Assembly: GCA_026396275.1 (NCBI GenBank)
Contig: JAPLXC010000002.1
Coordinates: 10,618-74,617, forward strand
Origin: Candidatus Moraniibacteriota bacterium
Lineage (GTDB): Bacteria > Patescibacteriota > Minisyncoccia > Moranbacterales > JAPLXC01
Direction: 5' to 3'
DNA: 64,000 bases
This document shows, piece by piece, positions 10,386 to 58,110 of the stretch (positions are counted from its first letter, which is position 1; each line of letters begins with the position of its first letter). The position numbers and the translations under genes are program-made. The notes beneath the pieces are model-generated. The model saw only the letters and a program-made list of their open reading frames with translations, did not search any database and was not told the origin of the DNA.

Positions 10386-10468
10386 AGTACTAATATACGA
10401 ATTTCAATTATGCCTAAGAAGGGTTTTGATAATTAGTATATTCGTATATGATTCGTAGTTCGTAGAGA
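10386..10468. repeat. TACGAAT/ATTCGTA heptamer cluster (inverted arms around a spacer) directly 3' of ruvB
   Basis: agtactaatatacgaattt ... ttagtatattcgtatatgattcgtagttcgtagag. One of seven similar clusters at gene boundaries. Confidence 0.55.
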
Positions 10469-11479
10469 TTACATCAGTTTTTGCTGATGATTACTGGGCA
10501 ACTTATGCCCCAAATGCCGAAAAGCGTTTTCGGTGACAACGCGCCCGCGGGGAGTCCTGGCTAAAAAGCCAATCTGAATGAGATACGGCTCAAATACATC
10601 TTCAATTGTTTGAATTTCCTCGGATGTCGCCGCCGCGATGGTCTGCACTCCCACCGGGCCTCCGTTGAATTTTAGAATTATTGTTTCCAGAATATGCCGG
10701 TCAATCAGTTCCAAGCCCACATCATCAATGTCCAACATTTTTAACGCCTGGCAGGTAACTTCGGCTGTTATCACATCGTGGTTGCTAATTTGAGCAAAGT
10801 CGCGCACGCGCTTTAGAATCCTGTTAGCCACCCGGGGGGTCTGCCGGCTGCGGACCGCCATTTCCCTGGCTGCGTCATTTTCCACATTCACGTCCAATAT
10901 CTTGCTGGAGCGATTAATTATTTTTTGAATTTCCTCCTCACCATAAAAGTCTAGACGGTGGATGATGCCGAACCGGTTGCGCAATGGATTGGAAATAGCG
11001 CCTAATCGGGTAGTGGCGCCAATCAAAGTAAAATGGGGAAGTTCCAGCTGAAGTGTGCGCGCTGATGGGCCCTTGCCGATGATTATATCAAGCTTGTGAT
11101 CCTCCATTGCTGGGTAAAGCACTTCTTCAATTAATTTATTAAGCCGGTGTATTTCATCAATAAAAAAAATATCTCCATCCTGAAGATTGGTAAGAATTGA
11201 TCCCAGATCTCCTACCCGCTCAATCGCCGGACCGGAAGTGATCTTGATGCTCGCTCCCATTTCCTTGGCAATAATGTAGGCCAGGGTTGTTTTCCCTAGT
11301 CCTGCCGGGCCGTAAAGGAGAACGTGTTCGATTGGCTCGCCGCGTTTTTTGGCTGCTTCAATGACAATTCGCAAATTTTTCTTTACTTTTTCCTGCCCGA
11401 CGTATTCAAAAAAGCTATTGGGCCGAAGCGTAGTGTCCAGTTTAACATCCTCAATTTTCTCACTGGAATTGGTGATCAT
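10469..11479 (-). CDS. ruvB: Holliday junction branch-migration helicase RuvB
   Basis: 336 aa. Walker [20 protein letters not shown]; full AAA+ and winged-helix layout. Confidence 0.92.
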
Positions 11480-11851
11480 AAGCTGATGTAGATTTGTTCC
11501 TTAATTACCCGTTATTTGACCCCATATTAGAGAGTATACTACGATTTGACAAACTTTGAAAGTCGTGCTAAACTGGTCTGTCATCTGTAAATATGCGCTT
11601 TTGGGTGCAATTTCCGATGACTAGCAGTAAGCTGTAGACAATTGGTGGTGACTATCTTTTGCCATCAATTCAGGGAACTTTCTTGTCCAGATATGGGTGC
11701 AGGGGTTTCGGCTCTTGTTCTCCTCGACATTGTTCTCTCCCTGGGGATCACATTTCCAGGATTGTCTACAGATTAGTGATATATTCATGAAGCATGAAAC
11801 ATGCAACATGAAACAAATTAAAAAAGTTTTTTAACAAAGGAGGGAAGAAAG

Positions 11852-12019
11852 ATGGAAACGAGGTATTTAATTCAAATAATGATAACTTTCTTGGTTGGAG
11901 CGACTGTTGTTGGCTTTTCGGCTATCACAGGGATTTGGCATCCAAATAACCCTTGGGTTTTTGCTAGCGCGATGGCAATTGGGGGATTTGTTGGTTTTAT
12001 TGTTATTCCTATTTTCTGA
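11852..12019 (+). CDS. Small (55 aa) two-TM membrane protein, hypothetical
   Basis: ATG preceded by aaggagggaagaaag (RBS). Translates to METRYLIQIMITFLVGATVVGFSAITGIWHPNNPWVFASAMAIGGFVGFIVIPIF. Absent from the track because it is under 60 aa. Confidence 0.35.
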   Translation: METRYLIQIMITFLVGATVVGFSAITGIWHPNNPWVFASAMAIGGFVGFIVIPIF

Positions 12020-12049
12020 ACAAAAGTTTTGAGGAAGGAGGAGAAGACA

Positions 12050-12394
12050 ATGAAAATTGTTATTCTTGTGGGACTTTCAATATTAGCAGTAGGAGCTATT
12101 GGAGCAGCGATCAAATTCAGGAAAGACAAACTCGGGCTAGTGTTATTAATTCTTATGATTATAGGAGCTGCTGCAACATCCTTTGGTTTTTTAGCACTAG
12201 GTAAGCAAGACGGTTATTTGACATTACAAAATGAGTTGACAAAAGAAGTTGACCTCAACAAAGTTCCCATTAAAGGATACCATTCGTCTAATGCTAAAAT
12301 AACGATTGTTTACAAGGATGGTGAGATTGAAAAGGTTTTCCTGGTTAAAGGAACGACGGTCGAGGCGACAAAGAAATATCAACCCGGAGAATAA
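12050..12394 (+). CDS. Membrane-anchored hypothetical protein
   Basis: Start re-set to MKIVILVGLSIL behind the RBS gaggaaggaggag. Two TM helices, then a soluble beta-rich tail. Confidence 0.45.
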   Translation: MKIVILVGLSILAVGAIGAAIKFRKDKLGLVLLILMIIGAAATSFGFLALGKQDGYLTLQNELTKEVDLNKVPIKGYHSSNAKITIVYKDGEIEKVFLVKGTTVEATKKYQPGE

Positions 12395-12473
12395 TTGTGC
12401 TATTGCTCAAAAAAACTATAAAGGGACACGGAGAAATCCATGCCCTTTATTTTTTTATTAAACCCAAATGAAT

Positions 12474-12532
12474 TGTCATGCTGAACTCGATTCAGCATCT
12501 AATTAGATTCCGGCTCGAAGGCCGGAATGACA
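12474..12532. repeat. GTCAT-type modular double-hairpin palindromic element, full copy
   Basis: tgtcat-GCTGAActcgaTTCAGC-atctaattagat-TCCGGCtcgaagGCCGGA-atgaca. Ends 6 nt from the GIY-YIG stop codon. Confidence 0.7.
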
Positions 12533-12537
12533 AATAC

Positions 12538-12828
12538 TTATCCAAGCAATGTTTCACTTAAATCTTTCCATTTGGGATTACTTTTATTGATTAAATCAAT
12601 TTTCCATTCACGTTTCCAATTTTTAAGCTGTTTTTCTCTGGTTAAGGCGCTTCTGACATCTTCAGTCTGCTCAAAATATACTAATTTTTTCAAATTGTAT
12701 CTTTTAGTAAAACCATCAACCAGTTTATTTTTATGCTCATAAATTCTTTTAGATAAATTACCAGTAACTCCGGTATAAATTACTGTATTAATTTTATTGG
12801 TCAAAATGTAAACACAATATTGTTTCAT
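12538..12828 (-). CDS. Small stand-alone GIY-YIG nuclease (YhbQ/YazA-like URI domain)
   Basis: ATG start re-set; the track begins at an upstream TTG. MKQYCVYILTNKINTVIYTGVTGNLSKRIYEHKN is a GIY-YIG signature. About 96 aa. Confidence 0.7.
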   Translation of the reverse strand: MKQYCVYILTNKINTVIYTGVTGNLSKRIYEHKNKLVDGFTKRYNLKKLVYFEQTEDVRSALTREKQLKNWKREWKIDLINKSNPKWKDLSETLLG

Positions 12829-12831
12829 AAA

Positions 12832-12863
12832 AATTAGATCCCGGGTCAAGCCCGGGATGACAT
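12832..12863. repeat. GTCAT-type element, single-hairpin half copy, immediately 5' of the GIY-YIG start
   Basis: aattagat-CCCGGGtcaagCCCGGG-atgacat. Same scaffold as the 48139 copy. Confidence 0.55.
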
Positions 12864-12902
12864 TAAAGCAAAACTTTTGATTTTTGCATTTTGATTTTTT
12901 AT

Positions 12903-15900
12903 TTATTCTTCCGTTACTCTCTCCACTTCCTCCAATGTCGTCTCGCCTTCCAAAACCTTAAGGATCCCGTCCTGCTGCATAGTGAGCATTCCGTTTTCAA
13001 TGGCTTTGTCGCGGATGTGGGTGGAAAGTTCGTTAGCATAAATCATTTCCTGGACGGCTTTGTCAATTACTAAGACCTCACTCACAGTGGTACGGCCTTT
13101 GTAGCCGATGCCGTTGCATTTGGCGCACCCTTTGGGCTTGTAAATGTAACTTCCGGGGGGAATTTTTACTCCCGCTTTGGGTGAAATTGACTTAATAATA
13201 TTTTTTATCTTTTCTTTTTCTTCCGCGGTGGGCTTAATTTTTTCCCGGCACTCACAAAGTTTTCGCACCAGCCGCTGCGCCATAAATCCATTGGCGGCGG
13301 TGGCTAAATCATCGGTTCTCACTCCCATATTGAGAAGGCGGGGAATAGCGCCGGGCGCGTCATTGGTATGCAAAGTTGATAAAACCAAATGTCCAGTGAG
13401 CGCCGATTGAACAGCGATGCCGGCTGTTTCCTCATCGCGGATTTCACCAATCATCATAATGTCGGGGTTTTGGCGAAGAAGCGAGCGCAGGGCCGTGGGA
13501 AAAGTGTATCCTTCTTTGTCACTAACCTGTGTTTGTAAAATCCCCGTCAGCTGGTATTCAATCGGATCCTCCACGGTGATTACTTTAACTTCGGGTTTAT
13601 TGAGCACCCGCAGCAAACTGTAAAGCGTCGTTGTTTTTCCGGATCCGGTGGGACCGGTATTGAGAAAAAATCCATTGGGCTTTTTGATTTCATGAAGGAT
13701 TTTATCCAGATTTTGTTTTCTGATCCCCAGTTTATCAACATCCAGCGCCACCGCTCCCCGATTGAGAAGGCGCATCACGACTGTTTCTCCGTAGCCGCCT
13801 AAAATTATGGAAACGCGCACGTCCACTTTTATTTCAGTTATATTTTTAAACGGCCGGTCTATGGCTATGGAAAAACGGCTGTCTTTTACTCCTTGGCGAA
13901 GTTCAGCTTTAAGCCCGGAAAGTATTTTTATCTCTCCTAAAAATGTCGGGTATTCATTGAGGGGAATCCGCCCGATGGTTTGCAAAATCCCGTCAATGCG
14001 AAGGCGCACCAAGACCTCTTTCTCTTCCGGCTCGATATGAATATCGCCGGCGGAAAGCAAAAGCGCCGCCGCGATAACGTAGCGCAGAGCGTCTTTTTGA
14101 TTAGCGCCTTTCAAAAACTCGGCGAATTTTTCGAAGGAGGATGTATTTTTAGAAACCTTTTCCAAATCTTCTTGAGGTATTTCGATCGCCCGGGAAAGCG
14201 ACTGCTCCATTAATTTTTCATAAATCTCTTCAAGGAATTCGGTTTGCCCCGTCACCCGCCATACCTCTTCCAGTGAAGTGATTCCCTCAATGGCTTTCAT
14301 GATCCCATCTTGCGCCATAGTTATCATGCCTTCTTCCAAAGCGGCTTGAGTTATTTCTCCTTCGCTGGCCATGTTTAAAATAAGTTTTTCGATTGATTCG
14401 CTCATGGTGAGAACCTCGAAAACTCCGATTCTCCCCCGATATCCCAGATTATGGCAACGGGGGCAACCTTTTGGCCGATATAATTGAAGGATATCTTTGG
14501 GGATTTCCATTTTTGACTTCGGGGAGATTATCGCCAGAATCTTTTTGATTGAGTTGGCTGTTTCCTTGGCGGGCTGATAGACCTCCCGGCAGTGAGGACA
14601 AATTTTTCGCACCAGGCGCTGGGCGATAAGAGCGCTCACCGCTGGAGCAATAAGGTTGGGTTTGACTCCCAATTCTATCAGGCGCGGAACAGCGCCAGCC
14701 GCGCTGTTGGTGTGAATCGTGGAAAGCACCAGATGCCCAGTTAGTGCGGCGTTAAGGGCAATGTCGGCCGTTTCTTCGTCGCGGATCTCGCCAACCAGAA
14801 TCACGTCCGGATCCTGTCGCACTATCGCCCGCAATCCCTTTTCGAAAGTGTACCCCCGGCTCTTGGACACCTGCGTCTGGGAGATTCCTTTTATTTCATA
14901 TTCCACCGGGTCTTCAATAGTTATTATTTTCACTCCCGGTACATTGATCCGGTTAAGAACGGCGTAAAGCGTTGTGGTTTTCCCGGATCCGGTGGGGCCG
15001 GTGTTGAGAATCATCCCATGGGGCTTTTCTGTCTGTTTTTGCACTTGCTCATAAGCTAGTCCCCGCAATCCCAGTTCCTCAACTCTCAAGAGGACATCGG
15101 CTTGATTGAGAAGACGCATCACGATGCTCTCTCCGCGGTTTCCGGGAATGATGCTGACGCGGATATTGATTAGCCCGTTTTCCAGATTGACATTGAAGTG
15201 CCCGTCCTGGGCAATATCACGGATGTTGAGTTTCATTCCTCCCATCATTTTCACCCGCGATATGATGAAGCGGTAAATATCCAGAGGCAGATATCCGACA
15301 TCCTGCAGAACTCCGTCCAGGCGATAGCGCAGACGCACTTCTTCTTCCTGCGGCTCAAAATGAATGTCGCTGGCTTTCATCTTCACCGCCCCGGCCATAA
15401 TGGTAGTGATAATCTGGGTGGTGGGAATTTCCCGGATCCTTTTTTTGAGTTCCAGCAGATCCTTGAATTCCCTTTCAAATTCTTCAAGGTCTTTTCCGCT
15501 AAGAGACAGGCGGAGAGCGTCCAGATTTTCCAAAAGCGGTGTCTCTTTATACTTATTCAGGGCTTTGCTAAGCGAAGAAAGCGAAACGACATAAAGGCGG
15601 ATGTTCCAACCATTTTCTTGCTGAAGTTTTTTGACGTAATCCAGTGTTTCACGGCTTCCGGGATTGGTCAGCGCCAGCCGGATGTTTTTCCCAGCTTTCT
15701 GAAAGACGGCCACTTGAAAACGGCGCGCCTCCTCTTCGGGAAGAGAGCGAAGCTCATCGCCGCTCAAAGGAAAGAGATTGAGATCAACGTAAAAAAGATT
15801 GTGTTTTTTGGCCAGCGCCGCGGCTTGTTCTTCTTCCGATTCCTTACGCATTCGCCGCAGGACTTGAGACGCCCTGATATCTTTTTCTTTATCAGCCGGC

Positions 15901-17282: not shown

Positions 17283-17311
17283 TTGACTTTTCCCTTGTTT
17301 GGGTGTATAAT
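17283..17311 (+). promoter_or_regulatory. Sigma70-type promoter (TTGACT-17nt-TATAAT)
   Basis: TTGACT at 17283-17288, exactly 17 nt spacer, TATAAT at 17306-17311, about 70 nt upstream of the Gly/Tyr-rich protein start. RBS aaagggaaaggagg. Confidence 0.6.
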
Positions 17312-22071: not shown

Positions 22072-22079
22072 TGCAAATT

Positions 22080-22153
22080 ATGATTCGAATTATATTCAAA
22101 TTAAGATACGAATTTGGATTGTAATTCGAATTTAATTCGTATATAAATTCGCA
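22080..22153. repeat. TACGAAT/ATTCGTA heptamer cluster between polA and fpg
   Basis: tgattcgaattatattcaaattaagatacgaatttggattgtaattcgaatttaattcgtatataaattcgcat. Confidence 0.5.
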
Positions 22154-22154
22154 T

Positions 22155-23024
22155 ATGCCGGAGCTGCCTGAAGTCCAAACAATAATTACTGATCTTAATA
22201 AGAAAATTAAAGGCGATATGATCGTCGGCTTTTGGACTGACTGGCCGAAGGCAATTAAAAATAAATCGGTTAAGAATTTTACAAGAGAAATTAAAGGAAG
22301 AAAAATTTTAGGGGCGCGAAGAATCGGGAAAAATATCTTTATTGATCTTTCCGGCGGAAAGACAATTTACATTCACCTAAAAATGACAGGGCACCTACTG
22401 GTTAAAAATCAAAAATCAAAAATCAAAAATCAAAAATATTTTAGGGAAAAAGTAAACCTGTATATTCACCACGTTTGGAAACTCAAAGCCCAAAACGCAA
22501 AACTTAAAACTTTGGAATTCTCGGATCTTAGAAAATTCGGGAAAATTTTATTAGTTGATACCGGAAAACTTAGGGAAATTAAAGAAATCAAAGAACTGGG
22601 AGTTGATATTATAAGTCCAGGCTTTACTCAAAAATTTTTTAATGCTTTACTGGATAAAAAACAGAACAAGAAAATCCGTGATATTTTAATGGATCAGCGT
22701 TTAATTTCTGGGATTGGAAATATTTACGCTTCAGAAATTCTCTATGAGGCCGGGATGCTGCCGGTAATATTAGCAAAAAATATAAACTCTCAAGAAAGAA
22801 CAAAGCTCTATAATTCCATTAAAGAAGTGCTTGAAAAAGCTATAAAACTAAGGGGAACTTCTGATTCTGATTATCGAGACACTTCCGGGGCGCCGGGAAG
22901 TTTCCAAAAAGTTCTCCGGGTGTACCGGTGCGAAGGACAGCCCTGCCGGAAATGTGGTACAATGGTAAAACGGATAAGAATGGGGCAAAGAAGTGCCTTT
23001 TACTGTCCCCGGTGTCAACATTAA
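22155..23024 (+). CDS. mutM: Formamidopyrimidine-DNA glycosylase (Fpg/Nei family)
   Basis: 289 aa. N-terminal MPELPEVQTI (catalytic Pro2/Glu3). C-terminal zinc finger CRKCGTMVKR...CPRCQ. Confidence 0.85.
   Translation: MPELPEVQTIITDLNKKIKGDMIVGFWTDWPKAIKNKSVKNFTREIKGRKILGARRIGKNIFIDLSGGKTIYIHLKMTGHLLVKNQKSKIKNQKYFREKVNLYIHHVWKLKAQNAKLKTLEFSDLRKFGKILLVDTGKLREIKEIKELGVDIISPGFTQKFFNALLDKKQNKKIRDILMDQRLISGIGNIYASEILYEAGMLPVILAKNINSQERTKLYNSIKEVLEKAIKLRGTSDSDYRDTSGAPGSFQKVLRVYRCEGQPCRKCGTMVKRIRMGQRSAFYCPRCQH
22404..22438 (+). repeat. Heptanucleotide microsatellite (AAAAATC)x4 plus a partial unit inside the fpg CDS
   Basis: aaaaatc aaaaatc aaaaatc aaaaatc aaaaata, encoding KNQKSKIKNQK. The unit length is not a multiple of three. 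Confidence 0.8.
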
Positions 23025-23033
23025 CTGGTTACT

Positions 23034-23138
23034 AATTACGAATTATTTACTAATATACAAATATACGAATATTTTATCCTCTCTTTCTTTTTAGAAAGAA
23101 AATTAAGAGATTAAATTCGTATATTCGTATAAAATTCG
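23034..23138. repeat. TACGAAT/ATTCGTA heptamer cluster with a central palindrome, 3' of fpg
   Basis: ttacgaatt..actaatatacaaatatacgaatatt - ctctttctttttagaaagaaaa - attcgtatattcgtataaaattcg. Inverted arms around the ttctttttagaaagaa palindrome. Confidence 0.55.
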
Positions 23139-23258
23139 CCCGCCTGCTTCAAAATTAATTATATGGCGGGATTAATGAAATTATTTGCTCCGAAAAAATA
23201 ACTAACGATGGCAACTCAACAATGAAGCATTTCGGGCAGGTAATTCGTAAAGAAAATC

Positions 23259-24368
23259 ATGAGTAAAAAGCAAAAAATAGTTATCGCTCTCATCGCCATT
23301 CTGGTCGCTGGATTAATTACTTACGCCACAGTGGGGCGGAAAATGATTCGTTCCAGCAAGGTAAAACAAATTAAAGTAGATCAGCAAGAAGCGGACGCCG
23401 GCTCTGCCAATCAGGGTCCGGTTAGCCCTATTTCCGGACTTTCCTGCGACAATTGGAATCGCCGGCCGATCGCCGTAATGCAGCCAGCTGATGTTCCCGC
23501 CCGCCCGGCTGCCGGCTTATCCGATGCGGACATGGTCATTGAAATGCCGGTTATTACAGCGACAATAACCCGCCTTATGGGAGTTTACGTCTGCAACGAC
23601 CCGGATGACGTTGGTTCAATGAGAAGCGCCCGGCACGATTTTGTCCATCTGGCTAAAGGACTGGATGCTATTTTTGTCCATTGGGGAAGATCGGATTTGG
23701 AGTGGTTTAAGGAACAACTAAACAATGGGGTTATTGATCAGATTAATTGCAACGATGACGCCGGCAAACCAGGTCTTCGGCTCGGATTCTGCTATCGAAA
23801 AGAAGCTAATGGAACGATGCGGGGAGTGGATACTGGGTACGCAAAATTTTCAAAGCTTATTGAAGGGGTAAAATATTACCAATACCGCCTGGAGAATAAA
23901 TTTTCCGGTTATCCTCACCAGGCTGAGCCCCCGATAGATCAGAGGCCAAGCGGCGGGCACTTGAGAGTGGCCTTTGCCGGTCCTTTCGCCGTTGAATATG
24001 ACTATGATAGAAGCGCAAACAGTTATTTGAGGACCTGGGGGAATGTTCTTGATACTGATCGTAATAATGGAAAAAGAATAGTTCCTAAAAATGTGGCGGT
24101 TTTATTTGCCCAATCATCCCAGATTGAAGGCCAATATAATAATGTCCAGCTGGGTGATCCTTGGATGGACACTTCCGACTCCGGAGACGCTTATTATTAT
24201 TTCAACGGAAAAGAATACCGGGGAACTTGGAAAAAAGACAAGGGAAACATTGCCAGTAAATTATTCTTCTATGACACTTCTGGCCAGGAAATAAAATTTG
24301 TTCCCGGCCAAATTTGGGTGGAAATTTTAGAGCCGGGGCAGCGACTGAAATGGGAACCAGTTCAGTAA
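23259..24368 (+). CDS. DUF3048-domain lipoprotein-like protein (YerB-like)
   Basis: 369 aa. N-terminal TM/signal. IAVMQPADVPARPAAGLSDADMVIEMPV resembles the DUF3048 N-terminal motif. Noticeably more GC-rich than its neighbours. Confidence 0.55.
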   Translation: MSKKQKIVIALIAILVAGLITYATVGRKMIRSSKVKQIKVDQQEADAGSANQGPVSPISGLSCDNWNRRPIAVMQPADVPARPAAGLSDADMVIEMPVITATITRLMGVYVCNDPDDVGSMRSARHDFVHLAKGLDAIFVHWGRSDLEWFKEQLNNGVIDQINCNDDAGKPGLRLGFCYRKEANGTMRGVDTGYAKFSKLIEGVKYYQYRLENKFSGYPHQAEPPIDQRPSGGHLRVAFAGPFAVEYDYDRSANSYLRTWGNVLDTDRNNGKRIVPKNVAVLFAQSSQIEGQYNNVQLGDPWMDTSDSGDAYYYFNGKEYRGTWKKDKGNIASKLFFYDTSGQEIKFVPGQIWVEILEPGQRLKWEPVQ

Positions 24369-24435
24369 TCATATAACACGCAACATATAACATGTAACAC
24401 AATAATTGGTTTCATGTTTTGGTTTCATATTTCAT
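24368..24435. repeat. CAYRTAACA/ATGTAACAT-family repeat between the DUF3048 gene and holA
   Basis: catataacacgcaacatataacatgtaacac ... gtttcatgttttggtttcatatttcatg (inverted arms). Confidence 0.45.
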
Positions 24436-26136: not shown

Positions 26137-27285
26137 CTAGCTTTTTATTGGCATAACTACATAGGCGTATTCTTTCACGGCTTTTTTTGTTTCATCACCC
26201 ATCATTTGAAGAAGAGCAGGTGAAGAATTATTATTAACGGAAAGCGCCAAAGAATAGGTGTTAATGGAATTAATTCCGTCCAGGATGTAACGGGGATTAA
26301 ATACAATTTCTTGATCCGGGCCGGATACTTCCGCGCGCAACTGACTTTTATTTTCTCCCGCTTCTTCTGATTGCGCCTGAATAACGACTTTTTTGTTTTT
26401 GGAATCAATTTTAAAATTTACCTCTCCGGATTTGCCGTGAGTGAAAATACTGGCTACTTTTACCGCCCGGGATAATTCTTCTTTACCAAGATACGCCCGA
26501 GTAGCGAATTCTTTTGGAATTATGTGTTTGTATTCCGGATATTTCCCGTTAATAAGACGGGACACAACCTTAATGGAATCAACCTGGAAGAAAATCTGGT
26601 TCTCTCCGATAGCAATTTTTACTTCCTGGGTTTCGTTGCCAATGATCCGCAATACTTCCGCAAAGGCCTGAGCCGGAATAATGAGTGAATTCACCTTGGA
26701 CATAAATACCGGATATTTTCCGTCTTTTTCCTGCTTTACGGGAAGAATAGCTTCGGCCAGGCGAAAACTGTCAGTGCCGGCTAAATGAATCTCCTTCTCA
26801 AAAAATAGCACGTTCACTCCGGTAAGTTCCGGCCTGGCATTGTCGATTGAAACGCACACAAGCAGTTTTGAAATTATATCCCTTAATTTCTGGGCAGGGA
26901 GAGAAAATAGAAAATCTCCTTCTAATTCAGGAATAATGGGAAATTCTTGGGCGCCCAGTCCTTTAATTTGAGCGTCATACTCTCCGCTAGATATTTTTAA
27001 AATAGAATTTTTAACTTCCAAGGAAATAGTGTCACTAATCGGCAAATTACTGACAAACCCACTAATAAGTTTAGCTGGGACTGTTATTTTTCCTTCTTTT
27101 TCTATTTTTGCTCCTATTTTTAATGATACTCCAATTTCTAAATTAGTAGCTGAAGCTTTCAACATGCCTTTTTCCGTCTCCAATAAAATATTTTCCAGAA
27201 TTGGAAGGGTTATTTGCCTTCCCACTACTCGCTCTGTGTTGTATATCGCTTTTTTAAAATTTTCCTGAGTGCAAATTAATTTCAT
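26137..27285 (-). CDS. dnaN: DNA polymerase III beta sliding clamp
   Basis: 382 aa, three-domain clamp. N-terminal MKLICTQENFKKAIYNTERVVGRQITLPILENILLE. Confidence 0.9.
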   Translation of the reverse strand: MKLICTQENFKKAIYNTERVVGRQITLPILENILLETEKGMLKASATNLEIGVSLKIGAKIEKEGKITVPAKLISGFVSNLPISDTISLEVKNSILKISSGEYDAQIKGLGAQEFPIIPELEGDFLFSLPAQKLRDIISKLLVCVSIDNARPELTGVNVLFFEKEIHLAGTDSFRLAEAILPVKQEKDGKYPVFMSKVNSLIIPAQAFAEVLRIIGNETQEVKIAIGENQIFFQVDSIKVVSRLINGKYPEYKHIIPKEFATRAYLGKEELSRAVKVASIFTHGKSGEVNFKIDSKNKKVVIQAQSEEAGENKSQLRAEVSGPDQEIVFNPRYILDGINSINTYSLALSVNNNSSPALLQMMGDETKKAVKEYAYVVMPIKS

Positions 27286-27580
27286 ATGTTTATAAAATTA
27301 TTATATTATATAAATTAGATTATATTTATTACTATAAAAAGAATAAAATTAGATGTTTATTATTTTTTGCTTTAGTAAAAACAATTTTTTAATATTTAAA
27401 TTGTGGATAAATAGGTTATTAATAGAATTATTTTTTGTGGGAAAAAGTTTATAAATTAGGAGAAAATAATTTCTTAATTTAAATAAACAATTTACGACAT
27501 TCCTTCTTCACAGGTTAATTGAATAGATATTCAAGGGAAATACAAAGGAATATCCGTATTAGTACACATAATATCCACAG
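27286..27580. promoter_or_regulatory. Candidate oriC: dnaA-dnaN intergenic region with DnaA boxes and an AT-rich unwinding stretch
   Basis: Perfect DnaA box TTATCCACA (as tgtggataa, 27402-27410). One-mismatch box atatccaca at 27571-27579. Extremely AT-rich 27290-27400. Confidence 0.5.
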
Positions 27581-28957
27581 CTAGATATTATAAATCCTTT
27601 CTTTTATAATTTCTATTTCCTCTTTGAGCTTTTCATTCTCCTCTACCTCTCTGGATATTTTATCAAACGCGTGAAGGGCAGTGGTATGGTTGCGGCCACC
27701 AAACCGCTCTCCGATGCTAGGATAAGAAGTATTAAGCTCGCTTCGCATCAGATACATAGCAACTTGGCGGGCGCGGGCAATTTCCTTTTTTCTTCCTTTG
27801 ATAATGAGCTTTTTGTCGTCAATGCCATAAAATTCTGAAACGGCGTCAATAATATGTTTGTGTTGTACACCCTTCTTTTTGCCGCTGGTGATTATTTCTG
27901 AAAGGGACTGCCGAACAAATTTCAAAGAAGGGGGTTTTTTATTGAACTCACTGATAGCAATAATTCTGTTTAGTGCTCCCTCAAGCTCCCGGATATTGCT
28001 TTTAATGTTCTCGGCGACAAACCTGATTGTCTCGTCATCCAGGTAAATGTCACGCTCGGCTGATTTTGCCTTTAAAATAGCCATTCTTGTCTCTAAATCT
28101 GGCTTTCCGATATCGGCTATCATACCTCCTTCAAAGCGGGACCGCAAACGCTCTTCAATGGTGGGTATGGCCTTGGGGGGTCGGTCGCTGCTGATCACAA
28201 TCTGTTTGTTAATCTGGTATAAAACGTTAAAAATATGGAAAAATTCATTTTGGGTTTTTTCTTTCCCAGAAAGAAACTGAATGTCATCGATAATTAGCAA
28301 GTCAATTTTCTGGTAATCGGCTTTAAACTGGGCAATACTTTGGTTTTTTATTGATTCAATAAGTTCATTGGCAAATCTTTCAGAAGTTATGTATTTTATT
28401 TTTTTGTGGTCGTCTTTTTTTATAATCTCATTTCCAATTGATTGAAGAAGATGGGTTTTTCCCAGGCCCACCCCGCCGTAAATAAAAAGAGGATTGTAAG
28501 CCCTTCCTAGGTTTTGGGAAACTGCGTAACAAGCAGCACGCGCCAGCTCGTTACTTTCTCCAATAATGAAATTTTCAAATAAATATCTAGGATTTAAGCT
28601 GCTATCTTGGTGGATATCATAAGAATCTGACAAAGAGGCGGACATTCTTTTGCTCTGCTTTGGTATCTGGACGGCATCTACATTTTTTACAGGACTCTGA
28701 GAAGTTCCCTGGAAATTATAAACAGCGCAACTGACTTCTTTTATATCTTGCTGCAAATTGCGAAGAGAGCGGAGAACGTAAGCGTAATACTTATTTTCCA
28801 GCCATTCTTTAGCAAACCCATTAGGAACGCCAATGATCACCCGGCCGCCTTCATTAGAAAGAATAGTGGTATTTTTAAACCAAGTGACAAAATTTGCTTT
28901 AGAAATAGAAAGCTCTATTTCACCTAAGGCAGCTTGCCATAACTCTTCATTAGTCAT
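27581..28957 (-). CDS. dnaA: Chromosomal replication initiator DnaA
   Basis: AAA+ Walker A GGVGLGKTHLLQSIGNE and a C-terminal DNA-binding domain. Start re-set to MTNEELWQAALGE; the track extends to 28990. Confidence 0.92.
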   Translation of the reverse strand: MTNEELWQAALGEIELSISKANFVTWFKNTTILSNEGGRVIIGVPNGFAKEWLENKYYAYVLRSLRNLQQDIKEVSCAVYNFQGTSQSPVKNVDAVQIPKQSKRMSASLSDSYDIHQDSSLNPRYLFENFIIGESNELARAACYAVSQNLGRAYNPLFIYGGVGLGKTHLLQSIGNEIIKKDDHKKIKYITSERFANELIESIKNQSIAQFKADYQKIDLLIIDDIQFLSGKEKTQNEFFHIFNVLYQINKQIVISSDRPPKAIPTIEERLRSRFEGGMIADIGKPDLETRMAILKAKSAERDIYLDDETIRFVAENIKSNIRELEGALNRIIAISEFNKKPPSLKFVRQSLSEIITSGKKKGVQHKHIIDAVSEFYGIDDKKLIIKGRKKEIARARQVAMYLMRSELNTSYPSIGERFGGRNHTTALHAFDKISREVEENEKLKEEIEIIKERIYNI

Positions 28958-28980
28958 ATGTTTTAGAAAACACGATTGTA

Positions 28981-29063
28981 TTATGCACAAGAAAGTATAT
29001 CACGGTCAAGTTGTTCACACCAGTCAAATTAGTTCATAAACTTGTTTATAATATGTGAATAAG
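28981..29063. promoter_or_regulatory. DnaA-box cluster in the dnaA promoter/leader
   Basis: ttatgcaca (28981-28989, fits TTATNCACA), ttgttcaca (29011-29019) and tgtgaataa (29055-29063, reverse complement of TTATTCACA). Confidence 0.45.
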
Positions 29064-29173
29064 ATATCAGATTCCGGGTTCTCGTAATCACTTAATGATG
29101 TATTGACTTTTCCGGGTCTGCTGATAAACTTTCCTATAGCTGTCGTTTATAATTTTTCAAGGGTAAAATCTCG

Positions 29174-29308
29174 ATGAAGCGAACATATCAGCCCAAAAAA
29201 AGGCGAAGAAAAAAAAGACACGGGTTTTTGAAAAGGATGAAATCTAAACAGGGAAAAAAAGTTCTAAAAAACAGAAGAAGAAAAAAAAGAAAGAAGTTGA
29301 CTCCTTAG
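29174..29308 (+). CDS. rpmH: Ribosomal protein L34
   Basis: 44 aa: [44 protein letters not shown]. Not in the track because it is under 60 aa. Confidence 0.85.
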
Positions 29309-29357
29309 CGCAACTAAAATTTGGAAATGTGAATTAAATTATAGTCCCCAAAAAAGA

Positions 29358-33271: not shown

Positions 33272-33337
33272 TGTCATTCCCGCGAAAGCGGGAATCTAGA
33301 GAATTTTCTAGATTCCGGCTCGGAGGCCGGAATGACA
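33272..33337. repeat. GTCAT-type modular double-hairpin element, full copy between the two GT2 genes
   Basis: tgtcat-TCCCGCgaaaGCGGGA-atctagagaattttctagat-TCCGGCtcggagGCCGGA-atgaca. Starts 4 nt after the upstream stop codon. Confidence 0.7.
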
Positions 33338-48138: not shown

Positions 48139-48203
48139 TGTCATCCCGGACTTGATCCGGGATCTAATCTAATTAGATGCTGAATCAAGTTCAGCGTGAC
48201 ATT
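48139..48203. repeat. GTCAT-type modular double-hairpin element upstream of pnp
   Basis: tgtcat-CCCGGActtgaTCCGGG-atctaatctaattagat-GCTGAAtcaagTTCAGC-gtgacat. Confidence 0.7.
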
Positions 48204-50136: not shown

Positions 50137-50177
50137 TTATTCGTATATTCGTACCTAATTCGTAATTCGTAGAGAAA
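50137..50177. repeat. ATTCGTA heptamer x4 direct cluster immediately 3' of gyrA
   Basis: attcgtat attcgtac cta attcgta attcgtag ag, ending at the gyrA stop. Resembles the post-ruvB copy (attcgtagttcgtagag). Confidence 0.55.
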
Positions 50178-52649: not shown

Positions 52650-52958
52650 TTAATTTTCAGGCGCCAATTCTGGCTGAGTAATTGTTCCTTCCTCTGAGGC
52701 ATTTTGCTGAAGGTCACCTTCGGATTCTCCGATAAAATCTTGAAGCGAAGGCAGCTCCTCCCGGACATTATTCCAGTCGCTCTGGAGACCGGAAGAATTT
52801 TTTTCTTCAGGCATCGCGTTTTTGAAGGATTCCTGGAGGGAAAAAATCCAGATGATAATAATAAAAACCATAACAATCACCACGCCGCCCAGGACATAGC
52901 GCATCCGAATATGCTCAGGTTGACGGCGGATATTTTCAATTTTGTCAGAAATAGACAT
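52650..52958 (-). CDS. Hypothetical single-TM protein
   Basis: 102 aa, one TM helix, acidic C-terminal tail. Confidence 0.35.
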   Translation of the reverse strand: MSISDKIENIRRQPEHIRMRYVLGGVVIVMVFIIIIWIFSLQESFKNAMPEEKNSSGLQSDWNNVREELPSLQDFIGESEGDLQQNASEEGTITQPELAPEN

Positions 52959-52971
52959 TAGAATAAAATCT

Positions 52972-53076
52972 TTACGAATTACGAATCTAGTACTAATATA
53001 CGAATTTTTTTAACCAAAAATTAAGTGAAGCAATTAAACTTATCTTTGGATATTGGTATATTCGTATTAAATTAGT
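52972..53076. repeat. TACGAAT/ATTCGTA heptamer cluster between a hypothetical gene and the MBL hydrolase gene
   Basis: tttacgaattacgaatctagtactaatatacgaattt ... ggtatattcgtatt. ctagtactaatatacgaattt is identical to the post-ruvB copy. Confidence 0.55.
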
Positions 53077-53088
53077 AATTAGTAAAGA

Positions 53089-53748
53089 TTACTCCACACT
53101 CATTATCACCACTTCCATACTTTTCTCTTCCAAATCCCTTTTCTTAAAAGACAGTTTATTTGATTTTTGGCTGGGGCAATTTCCCATTTCAGCGCAGAAT
53201 TTCTTTTCGTCAGCGATATCAATGGCCGAACCCTTGATTTTGTAGTGCATCGGAATAACAATTGCTGGCTCAATTTTTCTTACCAACTCTGCCGCTTTTT
53301 TGCCATCAAGAGTGATTTTGCCACCCACTGGAATAAACAAGACATCTATTCCGTCAATTTCTTCAAGCTGTTCCGAAGTAAGATCGGTTCCCAAGTCCCC
53401 CAAGTGGCAGATTTTCATTTCTTCCGATTCAATAACAAAAACAGTACTGTGTCCTCTTTCCTCTCCTCCCTTTTCATCATGAAATGTGTCTATCCCAACA
53501 GCGTTTATGCCTCTGGCTGAATACTCCCCCGGAAGATCAATAACAAGCGGGCCATTCTTAAGTGCAGAAGTATTGTTATGATCGTAATGATCATGGGATA
53601 CAAAAACAATATCCGCGTGCCCCTGAGGTGACCGCAGTCCAATGGAGCGATCAAAAGGGTCGGTAAAAATGACCACATCTTCAGTGGCTCTTCCTGCTGG
53701 TTTGGTTGTTATTTTAAAACAAGAATGGCCGTAATATTGGATATTCAC
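53089..53748 (-). CDS. MBL-fold metal-dependent hydrolase (UPF0173-like)
   Basis: Motif VFVSHDHYDHNN. Start re-set to the GTG giving (M)NIQYYGHSCFKI, because the track N-terminal extension to 53799 reads through a repeat element. Confidence 0.65.
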   Translation of the reverse strand: MNIQYYGHSCFKITTKPAGRATEDVVIFTDPFDRSIGLRSPQGHADIVFVSHDHYDHNNTSALKNGPLVIDLPGEYSARGINAVGIDTFHDEKGGEERGHSTVFVIESEEMKICHLGDLGTDLTSEQLEEIDGIDVLFIPVGGKITLDGKKAAELVRKIEPAIVIPMHYKIKGSAIDIADEKKFCAEMGNCPSQKSNKLSFKKRDLEEKSMEVVIMSVE

Positions 53749-53754
53749 GATTTC

Positions 53755-53812
53755 TTTACGAATTACCTGCCTGCCGGCAGGCAGGCGAATAACGTACAAA
53801 TATACGAATTAT
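53755..53812. repeat. TACGAAT heptamer pair around the GC palindrome tgcctgccggcaggca, upstream of the MBL hydrolase gene
   Basis: tttacgaattacc-tgcctgccggcaggca-ggcgaataacgtacaaatatacgaattatt. Confidence 0.5.
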
Positions 53813-55409: not shown

Positions 55410-55422
55410 AAATTCTGCAAAA

Positions 55423-55445
55423 ATGGACGCCGGCGTCCATTTTTG
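55423..55445 (+). terminator. Intrinsic terminator after rpsA
   Basis: atggacgc-cggcgtccat perfect 9-bp stem followed by ttttt. Confidence 0.7.
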
Positions 55446-55488: not shown

Positions 55489-56133
55489 ATGGAAAAATAT
55501 TCTTACGAAAAAGCTTATGAAGAAGCCGCGAAAATGCAGGAAAAAATAAAGAAAGACGAAGCGAGAAATTATTATGATGCCGAGAGACTTGTAGAAAAGG
55601 AAGATGAAGAAAAAGCAAGGCTCAAAAAATATGAGAAAAGCTTTGGTAACGAAGCAGAAATGATTATTGCGGAACTATTGAAGGAAGCTCCATTTATCAA
55701 GTCGGCAGAATTAGGAACAGACAATGAGGATAAAAAGGGTAAGTCGGACGTCTGGTTCAATTTTAGGGGAGACGAAATAACAGATCCAACAGCGCTTCAG
55801 CTTACCACATCAAGCAACCCCGAAAAAGTATCAAGTAAAAGAGAAAAATTACCACCTTTTGCAAAAAAAGAATACAGAAACGATGCTCAGATCAAATTTG
55901 ATAAAAAAGCCGATCTGGTTTTTGTTCATTGCGACAAGATTTATCTGGGAAGAAAATGGAATGAATATCTGGAGAAGAAAAAAGAAAATTCAAATACAAC
56001 CCTAACAAGTGTTTTAGGAAAAAAATTTGTAATTGATATTTTTTTACAAATTCTAAATGGGCTAGGAAAAACAAATCCTCCCAAAAAGACAATGCTTTTA
56101 AATTTTTTGAAAGAGTTTGAAAATTCTTTATAA
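55489..56133 (+). CDS. Hypothetical protein
   Basis: 214 aa, charged N-terminus, no motif recognised. Confidence 0.4.
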   Translation: MEKYSYEKAYEEAAKMQEKIKKDEARNYYDAERLVEKEDEEKARLKKYEKSFGNEAEMIIAELLKEAPFIKSAELGTDNEDKKGKSDVWFNFRGDEITDPTALQLTTSSNPEKVSSKREKLPPFAKKEYRNDAQIKFDKKADLVFVHCDKIYLGRKWNEYLEKKKENSNTTLTSVLGKKFVIDIFLQILNGLGKTNPPKKTMLLNFLKEFENSL

Positions 56134-56170
56134 AAAACAAAAGAGCTGAAGATTATTATTCTCCAGCTCT
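56133..56170. terminator. Bidirectional hairpin between convergent genes
   Basis: agagctgaag-attattatt-ctccagctct. An A-run on the plus side and a T-run on the minus side serve the 56169..56351 gene. Confidence 0.5.
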
Positions 56171-56351
56171 ATGCAACACCAGCCAGCCCTTTTTCTCTTA
56201 CGAAATTTAAAGTAAATACTGCAGAACCCTTAATTGTAAGAACATGAAACTCTCCATCCTTATATTCAACAGAAATAATTTTCGGGCTTTTTAAAAGGTA
56301 ACTAATAACCTCTTCTTTAGTTACTTCTCTGTTATTTTTATTTTTGGACAT
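56169..56351 (-). CDS. Small hypothetical protein
   Basis: 60 aa, convergent with the upstream gene. Low support. Confidence 0.3.
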   Translation of the reverse strand: MSKNKNNREVTKEEVISYLLKSPKIISVEYKDGEFHVLTIKGSAVFTLNFVREKGLAGVA

Positions 56352-56407
56352 TTTCCCTCCTTTCGCAGTCGTTGTGCGAGTTCATAATTTAGCACGGGTA
56401 TAAAAAT

Positions 56408-56986
56408 ATGTCAACAACCGGTAAAAAACTCAACCTTTTCATCATCTCCGGTCCCTCCGGTGCCGGCGAGGACTCTATAATTTCCGGACTCAAGAAATAT
56501 TTTCCCATTGAGCGGGTAATAACTACCGCCACGCGCTTGATGCGTCCCGGCGAATCCCAGAGTAAACCTTATTATTTCATTTCCCGGGATGAGTTTCAGA
56601 AAAAAATAGGAAAAGGGGACTTTATTGAATATGCCAAGGAGTATAACAATAATTTTTATGGGACAGAAAAAAAGGAGCTGGAAAGGGTCAAAAATTCCGG
56701 AAGAGTTGGAATCTGGAAAATTGAATATCAAGGAGTAATTACCGCCAAAAATCTTTTCCCGGAAATCCCGGTGATTTTTATTACAGTTTCCAATCTCAAA
56801 ATCCTCGAAGACCGCATCCGCCGCCGCGACGGGGTTTCGGAGGAATATATTAAGGAACGGATGGAATATACTAAGCAGTGGATGAAGCACAAAGATATTT
56901 ATGATTACAAAGTGGTAAATGAAGAAGGAAAACTGGACGAAGCCATTGCTCAAACCGCCGAGATTATCAAAAATCATGTCAAATAA
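56408..56986 (+). CDS. Guanylate-kinase-like protein with a degenerate Walker A (GPSGAGEDS instead of GxxGxGK[ST])
   Basis: 192 aa. Gmk fold markers TTATRLMRPGESQSKPYYFISRDEF and EYAKEYNNNFYGT. The P-loop Lys/Ser-Thr are replaced by Glu/Asp. Confidence 0.6.
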   Translation: MSTTGKKLNLFIISGPSGAGEDSIISGLKKYFPIERVITTATRLMRPGESQSKPYYFISRDEFQKKIGKGDFIEYAKEYNNNFYGTEKKELERVKNSGRVGIWKIEYQGVITAKNLFPEIPVIFITVSNLKILEDRIRRRDGVSEEYIKERMEYTKQWMKHKDIYDYKVVNEEGKLDEAIAQTAEIIKNHVK

Positions 56987-57025
56987 ACCATCCTCCTTAT
57001 TAGTCGGTAACAATTCAGCTTACTT

Positions 57026-57043
57026 TTCTAGCGATCGCTAGAA
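57026..57043. repeat. Perfect 18-bp palindrome TTCTAGCGATCGCTAGAA
   Basis: Between the gmk-like gene and tilS. Contains the PvuI-like CGATCG core. Could be a protein-binding site or a terminator stem. Confidence 0.4.
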
Positions 57044-57079
57044 ATTTAAACTGGAAATCATTTCTTATAACCGAAATTA

Positions 57080-58033
57080 ATGAGCAAGAATCTAATTAAA
57101 AAATTCCAAAATATCTCCCATCAATATGATCTTTGGCAAAAAGGATCAAAGATTGTCTTGGGTGTTTCAGGCGGGCCGGATTCGGTGGCGATGTTTGATA
57201 TTTTTGCGAAGTTAGCGCCGAAATATAATCTTAAATTAATTATTGCCCATGTGAATTATGGTTTGAGGGGGAAAGATAGTGATTTAGACCAGAAATTGGT
57301 AGAGAAATATGCTTTGCGGAATGAGTTAAGATTAGTTGTTTATAAGCCGGTTATTAAGGGAAAACACAGTGAAGAAATATTTAGGAATATCCGGTATAAC
57401 TTCTTTGAGAAAATCCGGAAGGATAATAATTTTGACTTAGTTGCTGTTGGTCATACGCTCGACGATCAGGCGGAAACTTATCTTATGAGAATTATCAGAG
57501 GCTCGGGACTGGCGGGATTAGCTTCTATGAAATTTAAGAAAGGCAACATTATCCGCCCGCTTTTAGGAATTACCAAGAAGGAAATTTTAGAATATCTTAA
57601 GGGAAATAAGTTAAACTACCGAACCGACAAAACCAACAAAGAAATCCCATTTTTGCGAAATAAAATCAGAAACGAATTAATCCCGCTTCTGGAAAAAAAG
57701 TATAATCCCAGTATAAAAGAAACTTTGTATAAATCTTCTCTCAACATTGCCGAGGATTATGATTTGATTTCTCAAATGGCGGAAGGATATTATAAAAAGC
57801 ATAGAAATTTAAAAATCAGCGAAATCTTGAAACTTCATCCCGCCCTGCAAAAAAGAGTAATTCTGGAAGCTATCAAAAAAGAAAAAAAAAGCTTAAAAGA
57901 CATAGAAAAAACCCACTTGGACGAAATTATTAAAGTTGCCAAGAGCAATAAAAGTAAATCCCAAATAGTATTACTTAAGGGCTTGAAAATTACTAGAATT
58001 GGTGATAAGCTAACCATTAATCGTTTAACTTGA
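57080..58033 (+). CDS. tilS: tRNA(Ile)-lysidine synthetase
   Basis: 317 aa. PP-loop LGVSGGPDSVAM. Sits in the conserved tilS-ftsH neighbourhood. Confidence 0.85.
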   Translation: MSKNLIKKFQNISHQYDLWQKGSKIVLGVSGGPDSVAMFDIFAKLAPKYNLKLIIAHVNYGLRGKDSDLDQKLVEKYALRNELRLVVYKPVIKGKHSEEIFRNIRYNFFEKIRKDNNFDLVAVGHTLDDQAETYLMRIIRGSGLAGLASMKFKKGNIIRPLLGITKKEILEYLKGNKLNYRTDKTNKEIPFLRNKIRNELIPLLEKKYNPSIKETLYKSSLNIAEDYDLISQMAEGYYKKHRNLKISEILKLHPALQKRVILEAIKKEKKSLKDIEKTHLDEIIKVAKSNKSKSQIVLLKGLKITRIGDKLTINRLT

Positions 58034-58035
58034 GA

Positions 58036-58110
58036 ATTCCTAATTCGTACATTTCCGCCAAAGAGAATCCATCTTTGGCGAGCGTCACGAAATTTGTAAT
58101 TCTTATACGA
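58036..58110. repeat. ATTCGTA/TACGAG heptamer pair around a hairpin between tilS and ftsH
   Basis: ctaattcgtacattt-cgccaaagagaatccatctttggcg-agcgtcacgaaatttgtaattcttatacgag. Confidence 0.5.

Follow-up and report, generated by a model that had tools for sequence, protein, structure and literature searches.

The stretch analysed here, 64,000 nt of Candidatus Moraniibacteriota DNA (hereafter the window), belongs to a genome of the Moranbacteria (Patescibacteria/Candidate Phyla Radiation, CPR) whose best ruvB relatives are 77% identical, and covers dnaA and dnaN plus many replication and repair genes. At several of its gene boundaries lie clusters of a heptamer, TACGAAT or ATTCGTA depending on the strand. 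It occurs 27 times, against 7.75 +/- 2.83 (maximum 14) in 100 dinucleotide-preserving shuffles of the window, which bears out the excess over chance that an earlier note on this DNA had claimed. According to a crude gene map of the window, 21 of the 27 copies are intergenic (about 8.1 kb, 13% of the window) and six fall within about 56 kb of coding sequence; all the other abundant intergenic 7-mers are plain A/T runs. The seven clusters are all located where the note had put them, but they do not contain two to four exact copies everywhere, as it stated. The numbers are 3, 2, 4, 4, 4, 2 and 1, the last locus (58036-58110) having only one exact heptamer plus the degenerate ATTTGTA and ATTCTTA, and a further relevant copy (23243-23249) lies beyond the interval given for the third. 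In our view these clusters probably represent the terminal inverted repeats that bound a family of very small selfish insertion elements, whose copies in the window are gene-less and similar to MITEs (miniature inverted-repeat transposable elements).

What the note had missed is a higher-order unit, a cassette of 33 nt in which four ATTNGTA heptads (H1 to H4) stand at offsets 0, 8, 19 and 26 (spacing 8/11/7), followed by a purine-rich tail. Its layout is H1-t-H2-nnnn-H3H4 with the tail (G/A)AGA, the spacers being of 1 nt and 3/4 nt, and any of the four bases may stand at the heptad centre (ATTCGTA, ATTAGTA, ATTGGTA and ATTTGTA are all present). Five cassettes are intact and match 23-24 of 24 positions, while locally shuffled windows gave 0-1 weaker matches each. 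Three others are interrupted by a GC-rich palindromic insert after the ATTCG of H3, and excising the insert of element 6 gives back ATTCGTAATTCGTAAAGA exactly. Two more sites are degenerate (elements 2 and 7 of Table 1), and in the latter a palindrome is nested in H2. A pairwise comparison of the eight intact and interrupted copies gives an identity of 0.99 for the 24 fixed heptad positions, of 0.47 for the nine positions of centres and spacers, and of 0.30-0.32 for the flanking sequence. The sub-blocks said to be identical between loci do recur, although the one shared by the ruvB and metallo-beta-lactamase (MBL)-fold gene loci has to be corrected to agtactaatatacgaattt (19 nt), the same at 10385-10405 and 52989-53007; the block attcgta(g/a)ttcgtagag adjoins the ruvB and gyrA stops, as claimed.

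The cassettes are arranged either as inverted pairs with the tails pointing outward (elements 1, 3, 5 and the degenerate 2) or as solo arms (elements 4, 6 and 7), giving seven sites in 64 kb. The arms are 33-37 nt long and the paired elements measure about 120-230 bp (about 83 bp in the degenerate element 2), filling the interval between the upstream stop codon and the downstream start codon. The tail end always faces the nearest boundary of an open reading frame (ORF), either 0-5 nt from a stop codon on the opposite strand (ruvB, gyrA, MBL, fpg) or 7-10 nt ahead of a start codon on the same strand (small membrane ORF, DUF3048, 102-aa ORF, MBL). There is no rRNA in the window, and every copy lies between protein-coding genes. 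The arm pairs can form long imperfect hairpins that begin right behind the upstream stop and end shortly ahead of the downstream start, with z-scores of -5.3 (-5.7 extended), -4.2, -3.8 (-4.7 extended) and -6.0; for pairs overall the range is -4 to -8.5. The solo cassette that follows gyrA shows no folding (z = +2.1).

Table 1. Heptad elements of the window, their arms, centres and nested insertions
Feature	Position	Strand	Description
Element 1, left arm	10333-10402	-	Interrupted cassette; H1-t-H2-cttg-ATTCG at 10379-10402, TA + H4 ATTAGTA + tail GACA at 10333-10345; small membrane-protein ORF follows after 7 nt (ATG 10323-10325)
Element 1, nested insertion	10346-10378		GC-rich double hairpin in left arm
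Element 1, centre	10403-10431	.	Unique sequence between the arms
Element 1, right arm	10432-10468	+	Intact cassette (10432-10464) ATTAGTAtATTCGTAtatgATTCGTAGTTCGTA + tail GAGA; tail adjoins ruvB stop (TTA 10469-10471 on + strand)
Element 2	22072-22154	.	polA stop to fpg start; degenerate tail-out pair, one hairpin (z = -4.2); heptads ATTCGAA/ATTCAAA/ATTCGTA/ATTCGCA, 11-12 nt apart
Element 3, left arm	23030-23070	-	Intact cassette 23030-23062 (ATTTGTAtATTAGTAaataATTCGTAATTAGTA, minus strand) + extra heptad 23064-23070; tail points to fpg stop (23022-23024)
Element 3, centre	23071-23114	.	Holds palindrome ttctttttagaaagaa (23085-23100)
Element 3, right arm	23115-23253	+	Interrupted cassette; H1-t-H2-taaa-ATTCG at 23115-23138, TA + H4 ATTCGTA + tail AAGA at 23241-23253; followed by DUF3048 gene, ATG at 23259
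Element 3, nested insertion	23139-23240		About 102 nt with GC-rich ends, in right arm
Element 4	50139-50175	+	Solo intact cassette (50139-50171) ATTCGTAtATTCGTAcctaATTCGTAATTCGTA + tail GAGA; without partner arm or hairpin; tail 2 nt from gyrA stop, H1 19 nt from start of 93-aa ORF
Element 5, left arm	52969-53005	-	Intact cassette 52973-53005, tail AAGA 52969-52972; 10 nt upstream of 102-aa ORF ATG (52956-52958)
Element 5, centre	53006-53051	.	Unique sequence
Element 5, right arm	53052-53088	+	Intact cassette (53052-53084) ATTGGTAtATTCGTAttaaATTAGTAATTAGTA + tail AAGA; adjoins MBL-fold gene stop (53089-53091)
Element 6	53753-53809	-	Solo interrupted cassette in MBL-fold gene leader; H1-t-H2-cgtt-ATTCG at 53786-53809, TA + H4 + tail AAGA at 53753-53765; then aatc and a GTG (53746-53748), most likely the start of the MBL-fold gene
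Element 6, nested insertion	53766-53785		Perfect 20-nt palindrome CCTGCCTGCCGGCAGGCAGG
Element 7	58043-58112	+	Degenerate solo cassette between tilS stop and ftsH start; H1 ATTCGTA at 58043-58049, H2 (ATTTC...) split by palindrome 58056-58080, H3H4 ATTTGTAATTCTTA at 58092-58105; ftsH GTG at 58113

A way to approach the nature of these cassettes is to look at what lies between them in other genomes. At five of the five independent loci examined in other Patescibacteria (L213/L214, L154, L215-L224, L225-L230 and L231-L235), a cassette pair brackets an ORF of about 130 aa coding for a GxxExxY protein of the PD-(D/E)XK_3 nuclease fold, in every case co-oriented with the flanking genes. The arms around these ORFs have four ATTNGT(A/T) heptads at offsets 0, 7-9, 18-19 and 25-27 followed by a purine tail, a description that the window cassettes fit. 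In the S3-L16 spacer of L213/L214 the ORF has 131 aa and matches PF13366 and TIGR04256, 'GxxExxY protein' (E = 5.8e-34), and the bracketing is exact, atcAACGAATagctaatctttTACGAATtTACGAAT|ATG..ORF..|ATTCGTAaATTCGCAacaagATTCGTTATTCGTTgatcaccATG, with the ATG adjoining the inner end of the antisense arm and the tail of the sense arm lying before the L16 start. Perfect four-heptad arms are found between T2SSE and T2SSF in L215-L224 (Nealsonbacteria; TAAcccTACGAATTACGAATcacTACGAATcTACGAAT|ATG...|ATTCGTAtATTCGTAgatATTCGTAATTCGTAgggatATG); the ORF of L154 has a PF13366 match as well, and those of L225-L230 and L231-L235 are likewise bracketed. In L209 and L210 a degraded GxxExxY ORF is flanked by ATTTGTA-type arrays. 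In some lineages, the gene carried codes instead for the four-helix-bundle protein of 23S rRNA intervening sequences (IVSs): ATTCGTA arrays bracket 23S_rRNA_IVP ORFs in L098 and L200, and in L121 such an ORF (IVP ORF) stands between inverted arrays of a different heptamer, GGTAGAA. Full-length members of the family, carrying one or the other gene, fit exactly between the stop codon of one host gene and the start codon of the next.

PDDEXK_3 / GxxExxY proteins are listed in the literature without a known function, and multiple horizontal transfers are noted for them (PMC3424549). A set of proteins (P0241-P0360), also GxxExxY and 60-86% identical to that of L213, bear source labels that assign them to diverse CPR phyla (Nealsonbacteria, Falkowbacteria) as well as to DPANN archaea (Nanoarchaeota, Pacearchaeota), a distribution consistent with horizontal spread or with mis-binning. 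A literature search of partial coverage produced no description linking heptamer arrays to GxxExxY or IVP genes.

The second line of evidence is the presence or absence of the elements at equivalent sites. The spacer between ruvB and the small membrane gene has 143 nt in the window and only 5-60 nt, without such an element, in 13 relatives. L007 (Moraniibacteriota), in which ATTCGTAtATTCGTActaaATTCGTAATTCGTAgagaccttcATG is found in the ruvB leader, carries between a conserved promoter and the ruvB ATG about 77 nt of inserted sequence, cassette included, that L006 lacks. In a Portnoybacteria-like organism, many of the spacers within the str-S10-spc ribosomal-protein operon hold cassette pairs or members of other repeat families, and the related L213 has 2-nt spacers or overlapping genes at several of the same sites. 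The S3-L16 spacer contains a full-length element in L213, a 99-nt gene-less pair with homologous arms in L186, and another repeat family in L209-L212, whose S3 is 99-100% identical. The L22-S3 spacer measures 132, 185 or 231 nt among near-identical strains, owing to arm duplication, and 2 nt in L213; in L186 near-identical copies, unique centre included, occupy both L22-S3 and S3-L16. Gene-bearing forms with homologous ends exist in other genomes, including the orthologous S3-L16 site, and their ORF is a candidate for the mobilising enzyme. The S7-EFG site, filled in L209 and empty in L213, is compatible with a duplication of TAA or TA, although it does not prove one.

The proposed mode of life of the elements would be the following. 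Spread would most likely be driven by the GxxExxY nuclease, which would recognise the heptads, and the gene-less copies would be mobilised in trans; recognition of this kind would account for the fact that conservation is limited to the heptad positions. Once inserted, the element would be co-transcribed with the genes of the host operon. The sense arm's outward tail, 4-14 nt ahead of the downstream start, would provide an A/G-rich leader, weakly similar to a Shine-Dalgarno (SD) sequence, that could keep the initiation region usable in an SD-poor genome. In the gene-less copies the arms would pair into a long imperfect hairpin joining the upstream stop with the downstream start, like the stem of a 23S rRNA IVS, and RNA processing or translational coupling might follow. 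We propose that, with stop and start brought together by the arm stem, the insertion could be tolerated even in essential operons.

Several observations weigh against this interpretation, or against parts of it. The window copies differ at every unconstrained position and are therefore not recent copies of one master, and the 99% conservation of the heptads could equally fit a function at the level of the host. No GxxExxY (TIGR04256 / PF13366) or IVS-protein ORF was detected in the 64-kb window by profile searches of its six-frame translations (a 120-sequence profile plus small profiles for GxxExxY), and no target-site duplication is evident at the window elements. The elements with a four-helix-bundle ORF have no nuclease; the ORFs may be cargo and the mobilising enzyme something else. 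Solo cassettes facing stop codons (50139-50175) are explained just as half-elements. As to the RNA stem, the heptad centres in paired arms are mismatched, without compensation, and the untranscribed strand folds equally well or better, which indicates that the inverted repeat is a feature of the DNA and gives no sign of selection on RNA structure. Selection on the hairpins at the RNA level was discarded for these same reasons.

The strongest alternative sees in the cassettes an RNA element of the host that acts in cis. As the genome is poor in SD sequences, the sense cassette would offer a platform (to the multi-domain protein S1, for instance) on which ribosomes are loaded or translation is enhanced. 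The inverted arm adjoining the upstream stop would form a hairpin that couples downstream to upstream translation, and selfish ORFs would merely exploit the arrangement. Much of the placement agrees with it. Most window genes have no SD, the sense cassettes of several genomes stop 4-14 nt ahead of starts with tails (G/A)AGA, GGG or GGAAG, the antisense arms begin 0-4 nt past stops, the hairpins sequester the start region, and the heptad positions are conserved where the spacers are saturated. Arrays pointing toward a same-strand start are twice as frequent as those pointing away (32 vs 15 overall; 17 vs 4 in low-GC contigs), and there is a published analogue in the TAACTGA heptamers found directly upstream of starts, ribosomal-protein operons included (PMC4679880). 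However, orthologous spacers of relatives have 2-60 nt and no element, arms are swapped, duplicated or missing between near-identical strains, selfish-type ORFs are bracketed at all five loci, and there is an antisense solo cassette (50139-50175). The uncompensated mismatches and the folding of the untranscribed strand speak in the same direction. The insertion polymorphism and the bracketing of ORFs make it unlikely that a host element is the primary explanation, although a role in translation or coupling may have been acquired secondarily, by exaptation.

The earlier note had itself offered two explanations, a MITE-like element with TACGAAT-type terminal repeats, and binding-site arrays that would terminate or insulate at the ends of operons. 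The first was essentially right, with the precision that the ends are four-heptad cassettes and that elsewhere in Patescibacteria they bracket GxxExxY ORFs. The second, in which a DNA-binding protein (a ribbon-helix-helix repressor, for example) would use the cassettes as operators, roadblock terminators or insulators, seems to us very improbable. It would suit the four short sites, spaced in a fixed and genome-specific way and each free at its central base, and their direct and inverted arrangements (the omega repressor of pSM19035 binds heptad arrays in both), and also the several repair and replication neighbours (ruvB, polA, fpg, gyrA, ruvA, uvrA). Yet cassettes sit within operons, including the S10/spc ribosomal-protein operon and between pilus genes, no candidate regulator adjoins them, the cassette of L007 does not cover the canonical promoter there but stands about 45 nt downstream of it, and the window is an origin region, rich in replication genes anyway. 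Neighbours in other genomes (S3, L16, GAPDH, pyruvate kinase, FtsZ, UvrA, RuvA, a tRNA synthetase, an MBL-fold gene; in L201-L203 the cassette stands 8 nt ahead of ruvA) have no common function, which argues against a regulon.

Related candidates were discarded along the way. An SOS-like or repair regulon, prompted by ruvB, polA, fpg and gyrA, was dropped because the window is simply the origin region and the neighbours elsewhere (S3, L16, GAPDH, FtsZ and others) are unrelated. The small ORFs adjoining cassettes (93 and 102 aa) are poor candidates for binding proteins, one being acidic and helical and the other membrane-anchored, neither with a Pfam match. As sigma-70 promoters, the cassettes have poorly matching hexamers, promoter-like sites are not enriched, and the canonical TTGACT-17-TATAAT is in use. 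A DNA-uptake sequence was judged unlikely, as the heptamers are nearly absent from coding DNA and the same arrays appear across contigs of very different base composition.

A scan of metagenomes for two adjacent heptamers gave at least 120 loci, on contigs of 31-67% GC. Among the matches listed, the low-GC contigs have the four-heptad cassette with a genome-specific spacing (8/10/7, 8/11/7, 8/9/7 or 9/10/8), and other contigs have contiguous heptamer runs, often as inverted pairs. Viral contigs were scanned as a test for a host expression signal; just two, related to each other, carry a similar array, and the search of the viral contigs for GxxExxY gave no match. The pure (ATTCGTA)n runs with variant units, present on many of the metagenome contigs among the matches listed, could suggest plain simple-sequence repeats generated by slippage (the heptanucleotide long simple-sequence or STRR type) with no element identity. 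Copy number indeed varies between the related viral contigs, and heptanucleotide repeats are the commonest class of long simple sequences in prokaryotes (Mrazek 2007, as summarised in PMC4679880). We give this explanation slightly less credit than the operators. Spacers of 1 and 4 nt, a fixed number of four heptads and a conserved tail are not products of slippage, and in the window cassettes only H3 and H4 are contiguous, the others being 1 and 4 nt apart, so that runs of at least three contiguous copies, the usual definition of a tandem repeat, do not occur. The inverted pairing and the exact bracketing of ORFs would also be left unexplained.

Finally, that the cassettes are intrinsic terminators or a known family of RNAs or guide arrays is barely credible. 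The hairpins do lie at gene ends, but their stems are AU-rich, with mismatch bubbles and without U-tracts, one solo cassette (that after gyrA) has no hairpin at all, and a terminator scan that finds canonical sites elsewhere in the window (e.g. 55418-55445) leaves all seven loci uncalled. CPR bacteria commonly have TIGR-Tas systems, but no Nop-domain (tas) protein is found among the window proteins, reading the cassettes revealed no box C/D motifs or variable spacer pairs, and the units are near-identical rather than spacer-variable. By definition, a TIGR array stands beside a tas gene of this kind, and its units, about 36 nt long, carry box C/D motifs and pairs of spacers that vary (preprint 10.64898/2026.09.09.750476). 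Rfam searches gave no matching family either.

Returning to the reading as selfish insertion elements, the closest described kind is the IVS of 23S rRNA, a selfish insertion bounded by an inverted-repeat stem, sometimes with an S23p / 23S_rRNA_IVP ORF, and excised by RNase III (Leptospira, Coxiella; PMC4990558). Like it, the heptad elements would be small selfish insertions with terminal inverted repeats that form a stem joining the flanks, an optional ORF of about 120 aa, and gene-less versions. They differ in location, IVSs sitting in helices of the 23S (or 16S) rRNA and the heptad elements in stop-to-start spacers of protein-coding operons, and also in that their repeats are built of heptads and their usual ORF codes for a GxxExxY nuclease-fold protein. 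The Correia elements of Neisseria are short multi-copy intergenic MITEs with terminal inverted repeats, co-transcribed with their neighbours. With bacterial MITEs in general (reviewed in PMC10969869) the window elements share being short, non-coding, multi-copy and intergenic, the terminal inverted repeats, the hairpins and the presence or absence between relatives. The arms, however, are four-heptad arrays instead of a unique terminal sequence, and the PD-(D/E)XK_3 protein of about 130 aa in the gene-bearing form is not a recognised transposase.

The cyanobacterial short tandemly repeated repetitive (STRR) sequences are heptanucleotide tandem repeats. Repeats of this type have in common with the cassettes the 7-nt units, a mostly intergenic location, often a few nucleotides from starts, and their presence in ribosomal-protein operons and SD-poor contexts; four-unit elements are dispersed in tens of copies. 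Heptanucleotide repeats have been described as TAACTGA repeats in Beggiatoaceae, Cyanobacteria and Bacteroidetes, with origin and function reported as unknown (PMC4679880), and as four-heptanucleotide elements in Geobacter metallireducens (PMC2700814). These, however, are contiguous runs for which neither ORF association nor inverted pairing is reported, unlike the 8/11/7 spacing found here, with the arrays as the arms of an element. Repetitive extragenic palindromes (REPs), bacterial interspersed mosaic elements (BIMEs) and REP doublets forming hairpins (REPINs), with their REP-associated tyrosine transposases (RAYTs; PMC3116915, PMC3733652), are also dispersed extragenic inverted doublets, hairpin-forming and non-autonomous, and their conservation is explained through recognition by an element-associated enzyme, as is proposed for the heptads. 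Still, where the REP unit is an imperfect palindrome of 20-40 nt with a conserved GTAG/CGTC head, the single heptad cassette is not palindromic, does not fold and lacks such a head, the heptad-associated ORF has a PD-(D/E)XK fold, and no RAYT (Y1-transposase domain) was found among the window proteins.

The Rickettsia palindromic elements, mentioned in PMC1779305, offer a further comparison. Reduced genomes tolerate these selfish palindromic repeats in essential genes. A likeness to them is found in L085, a contig of 65% GC, where (TACGAAT)4 arrays and an inverted-arm element (701-728, 2849-2935 and 3296-3323) lie in frame in a large membrane-protein ORF and are translated as ...RITNYELRITN...; the difference is that the window copies are all intergenic and that the sequences are unrelated.

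Heptanucleotide repeats (PMC4679880), the four-heptanucleotide elements of Geobacter (PMC2700814), MITEs, REPINs (PMC3116915) and IVSs were thus already known. A wider proposal, which we put forward tentatively and rather doubt, is that inverted tandem-heptamer arrays are the recognition ends of a new class of mobile elements, with a GxxExxY PD-(D/E)XK nuclease core (about 130 aa) and four-helix-bundle IVS/Avd-like proteins as the alternative passenger, that home into stop-start junctions, rRNA helices and, in frame, ORFs, and whose decay products would be the heptanucleotide repeats (STRR, TAACTGA, four-heptanucleotide) of Cyanobacteria, Bacteroidetes, Beggiatoaceae, Geobacter and CPR/DPANN. 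Should the selfish-element reading hold, the orphan family GxxExxY/PDDEXK_3 would acquire a concrete role, namely to be carried as gene by a selfish element whose DNA ends are defined, and at least part of the heptamer repeats, whose origin and function the literature reports as unknown, would gain an origin. It would also account for spacers inflated by palindromic repeats even in the ribosomal-protein operons of tiny CPR genomes. In practical terms, heptad arrays break assemblies and yield spurious ORFs of the ...RITNYELRITN... type, and are useful as strain-level markers; should the nuclease recognise the four-heptad array, it might become a compact sequence-specific DNA tool.

The elements are accompanied by other repeats. 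In four window elements a second, GC-rich palindrome is nested inside a heptad, at the same position of it (after ATTCG or ATTTC: 10346-10378, 23139-23240, 53766-53785 and 58056-58080), which suggests a second-tier element targeting the heptad; similar REP-like palindromes are found in other spacers of the window (12477-12532, 33273-33331 and 48139-48198). The three central palindromes of the earlier note are real (23085-23100, 53766-53785 and 58056-58080). There is also a second family of four-heptad cassettes (CAYRNRR x4, contiguous, 28 nt), at 7345-7372(+)/7394-7421(-), 11786-11813(+), 24370-24397(+) and 60986-61013(+), of which one copy is an inverted pair upstream of yebC-ruvC and two begin 1-3 nt past stop codons. 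Cassettes of this type recur in L004, L010 and L011 (ruvB leader) and in L201 (DUF3048-holA spacer). In the Portnoybacteria-like ribosomal-protein operon of L209 (1250-15846) the spacers contain at least three other inverted-repeat families (GCAGATA-type, CTAATTAACC-type and CATCCGAAT-type), and the related L213 has AATTTTC-type arrays in the L6-L18 spacer.

Some minor features of the window and its relatives remain to be described. A tandem heptamer, (AAAAATC) x ~4.7, lies within the coding sequence of fpg (22404-22437), where the alignment to the Pfam N-terminal domain has extra residues. Upstream of the DUF3048 gene, three Moranbacteria (L201 6886-7009, L203 6886-7020 and L204 3645-3790) have a conserved long-range stem, ATCCCGCACCAA...TTGGTGCGGGAT, with an interior that is conserved too and no Rfam match. 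The region 26137-29357 contains dnaN, dnaA and rnpA-yidC-jag, with AT-rich spacers holding TTATCCACA-like boxes, and the window covers the replication origin region. Most window genes have A/T-rich leaders in place of an SD, and canonical sigma-70 promoters exist, such as the TTGACT-17-TATAAT near 17300. At 61101-61664 there are tRNA-like sequences in which the same 37-nt GC palindrome takes the place of the D-loop (61122-61158 and 61499-61535), and also a GIY-YIG-like ORF (about 61170-61415); ARAGORN and Rfam call only a tRNA-Val (61409-61483) in this region.

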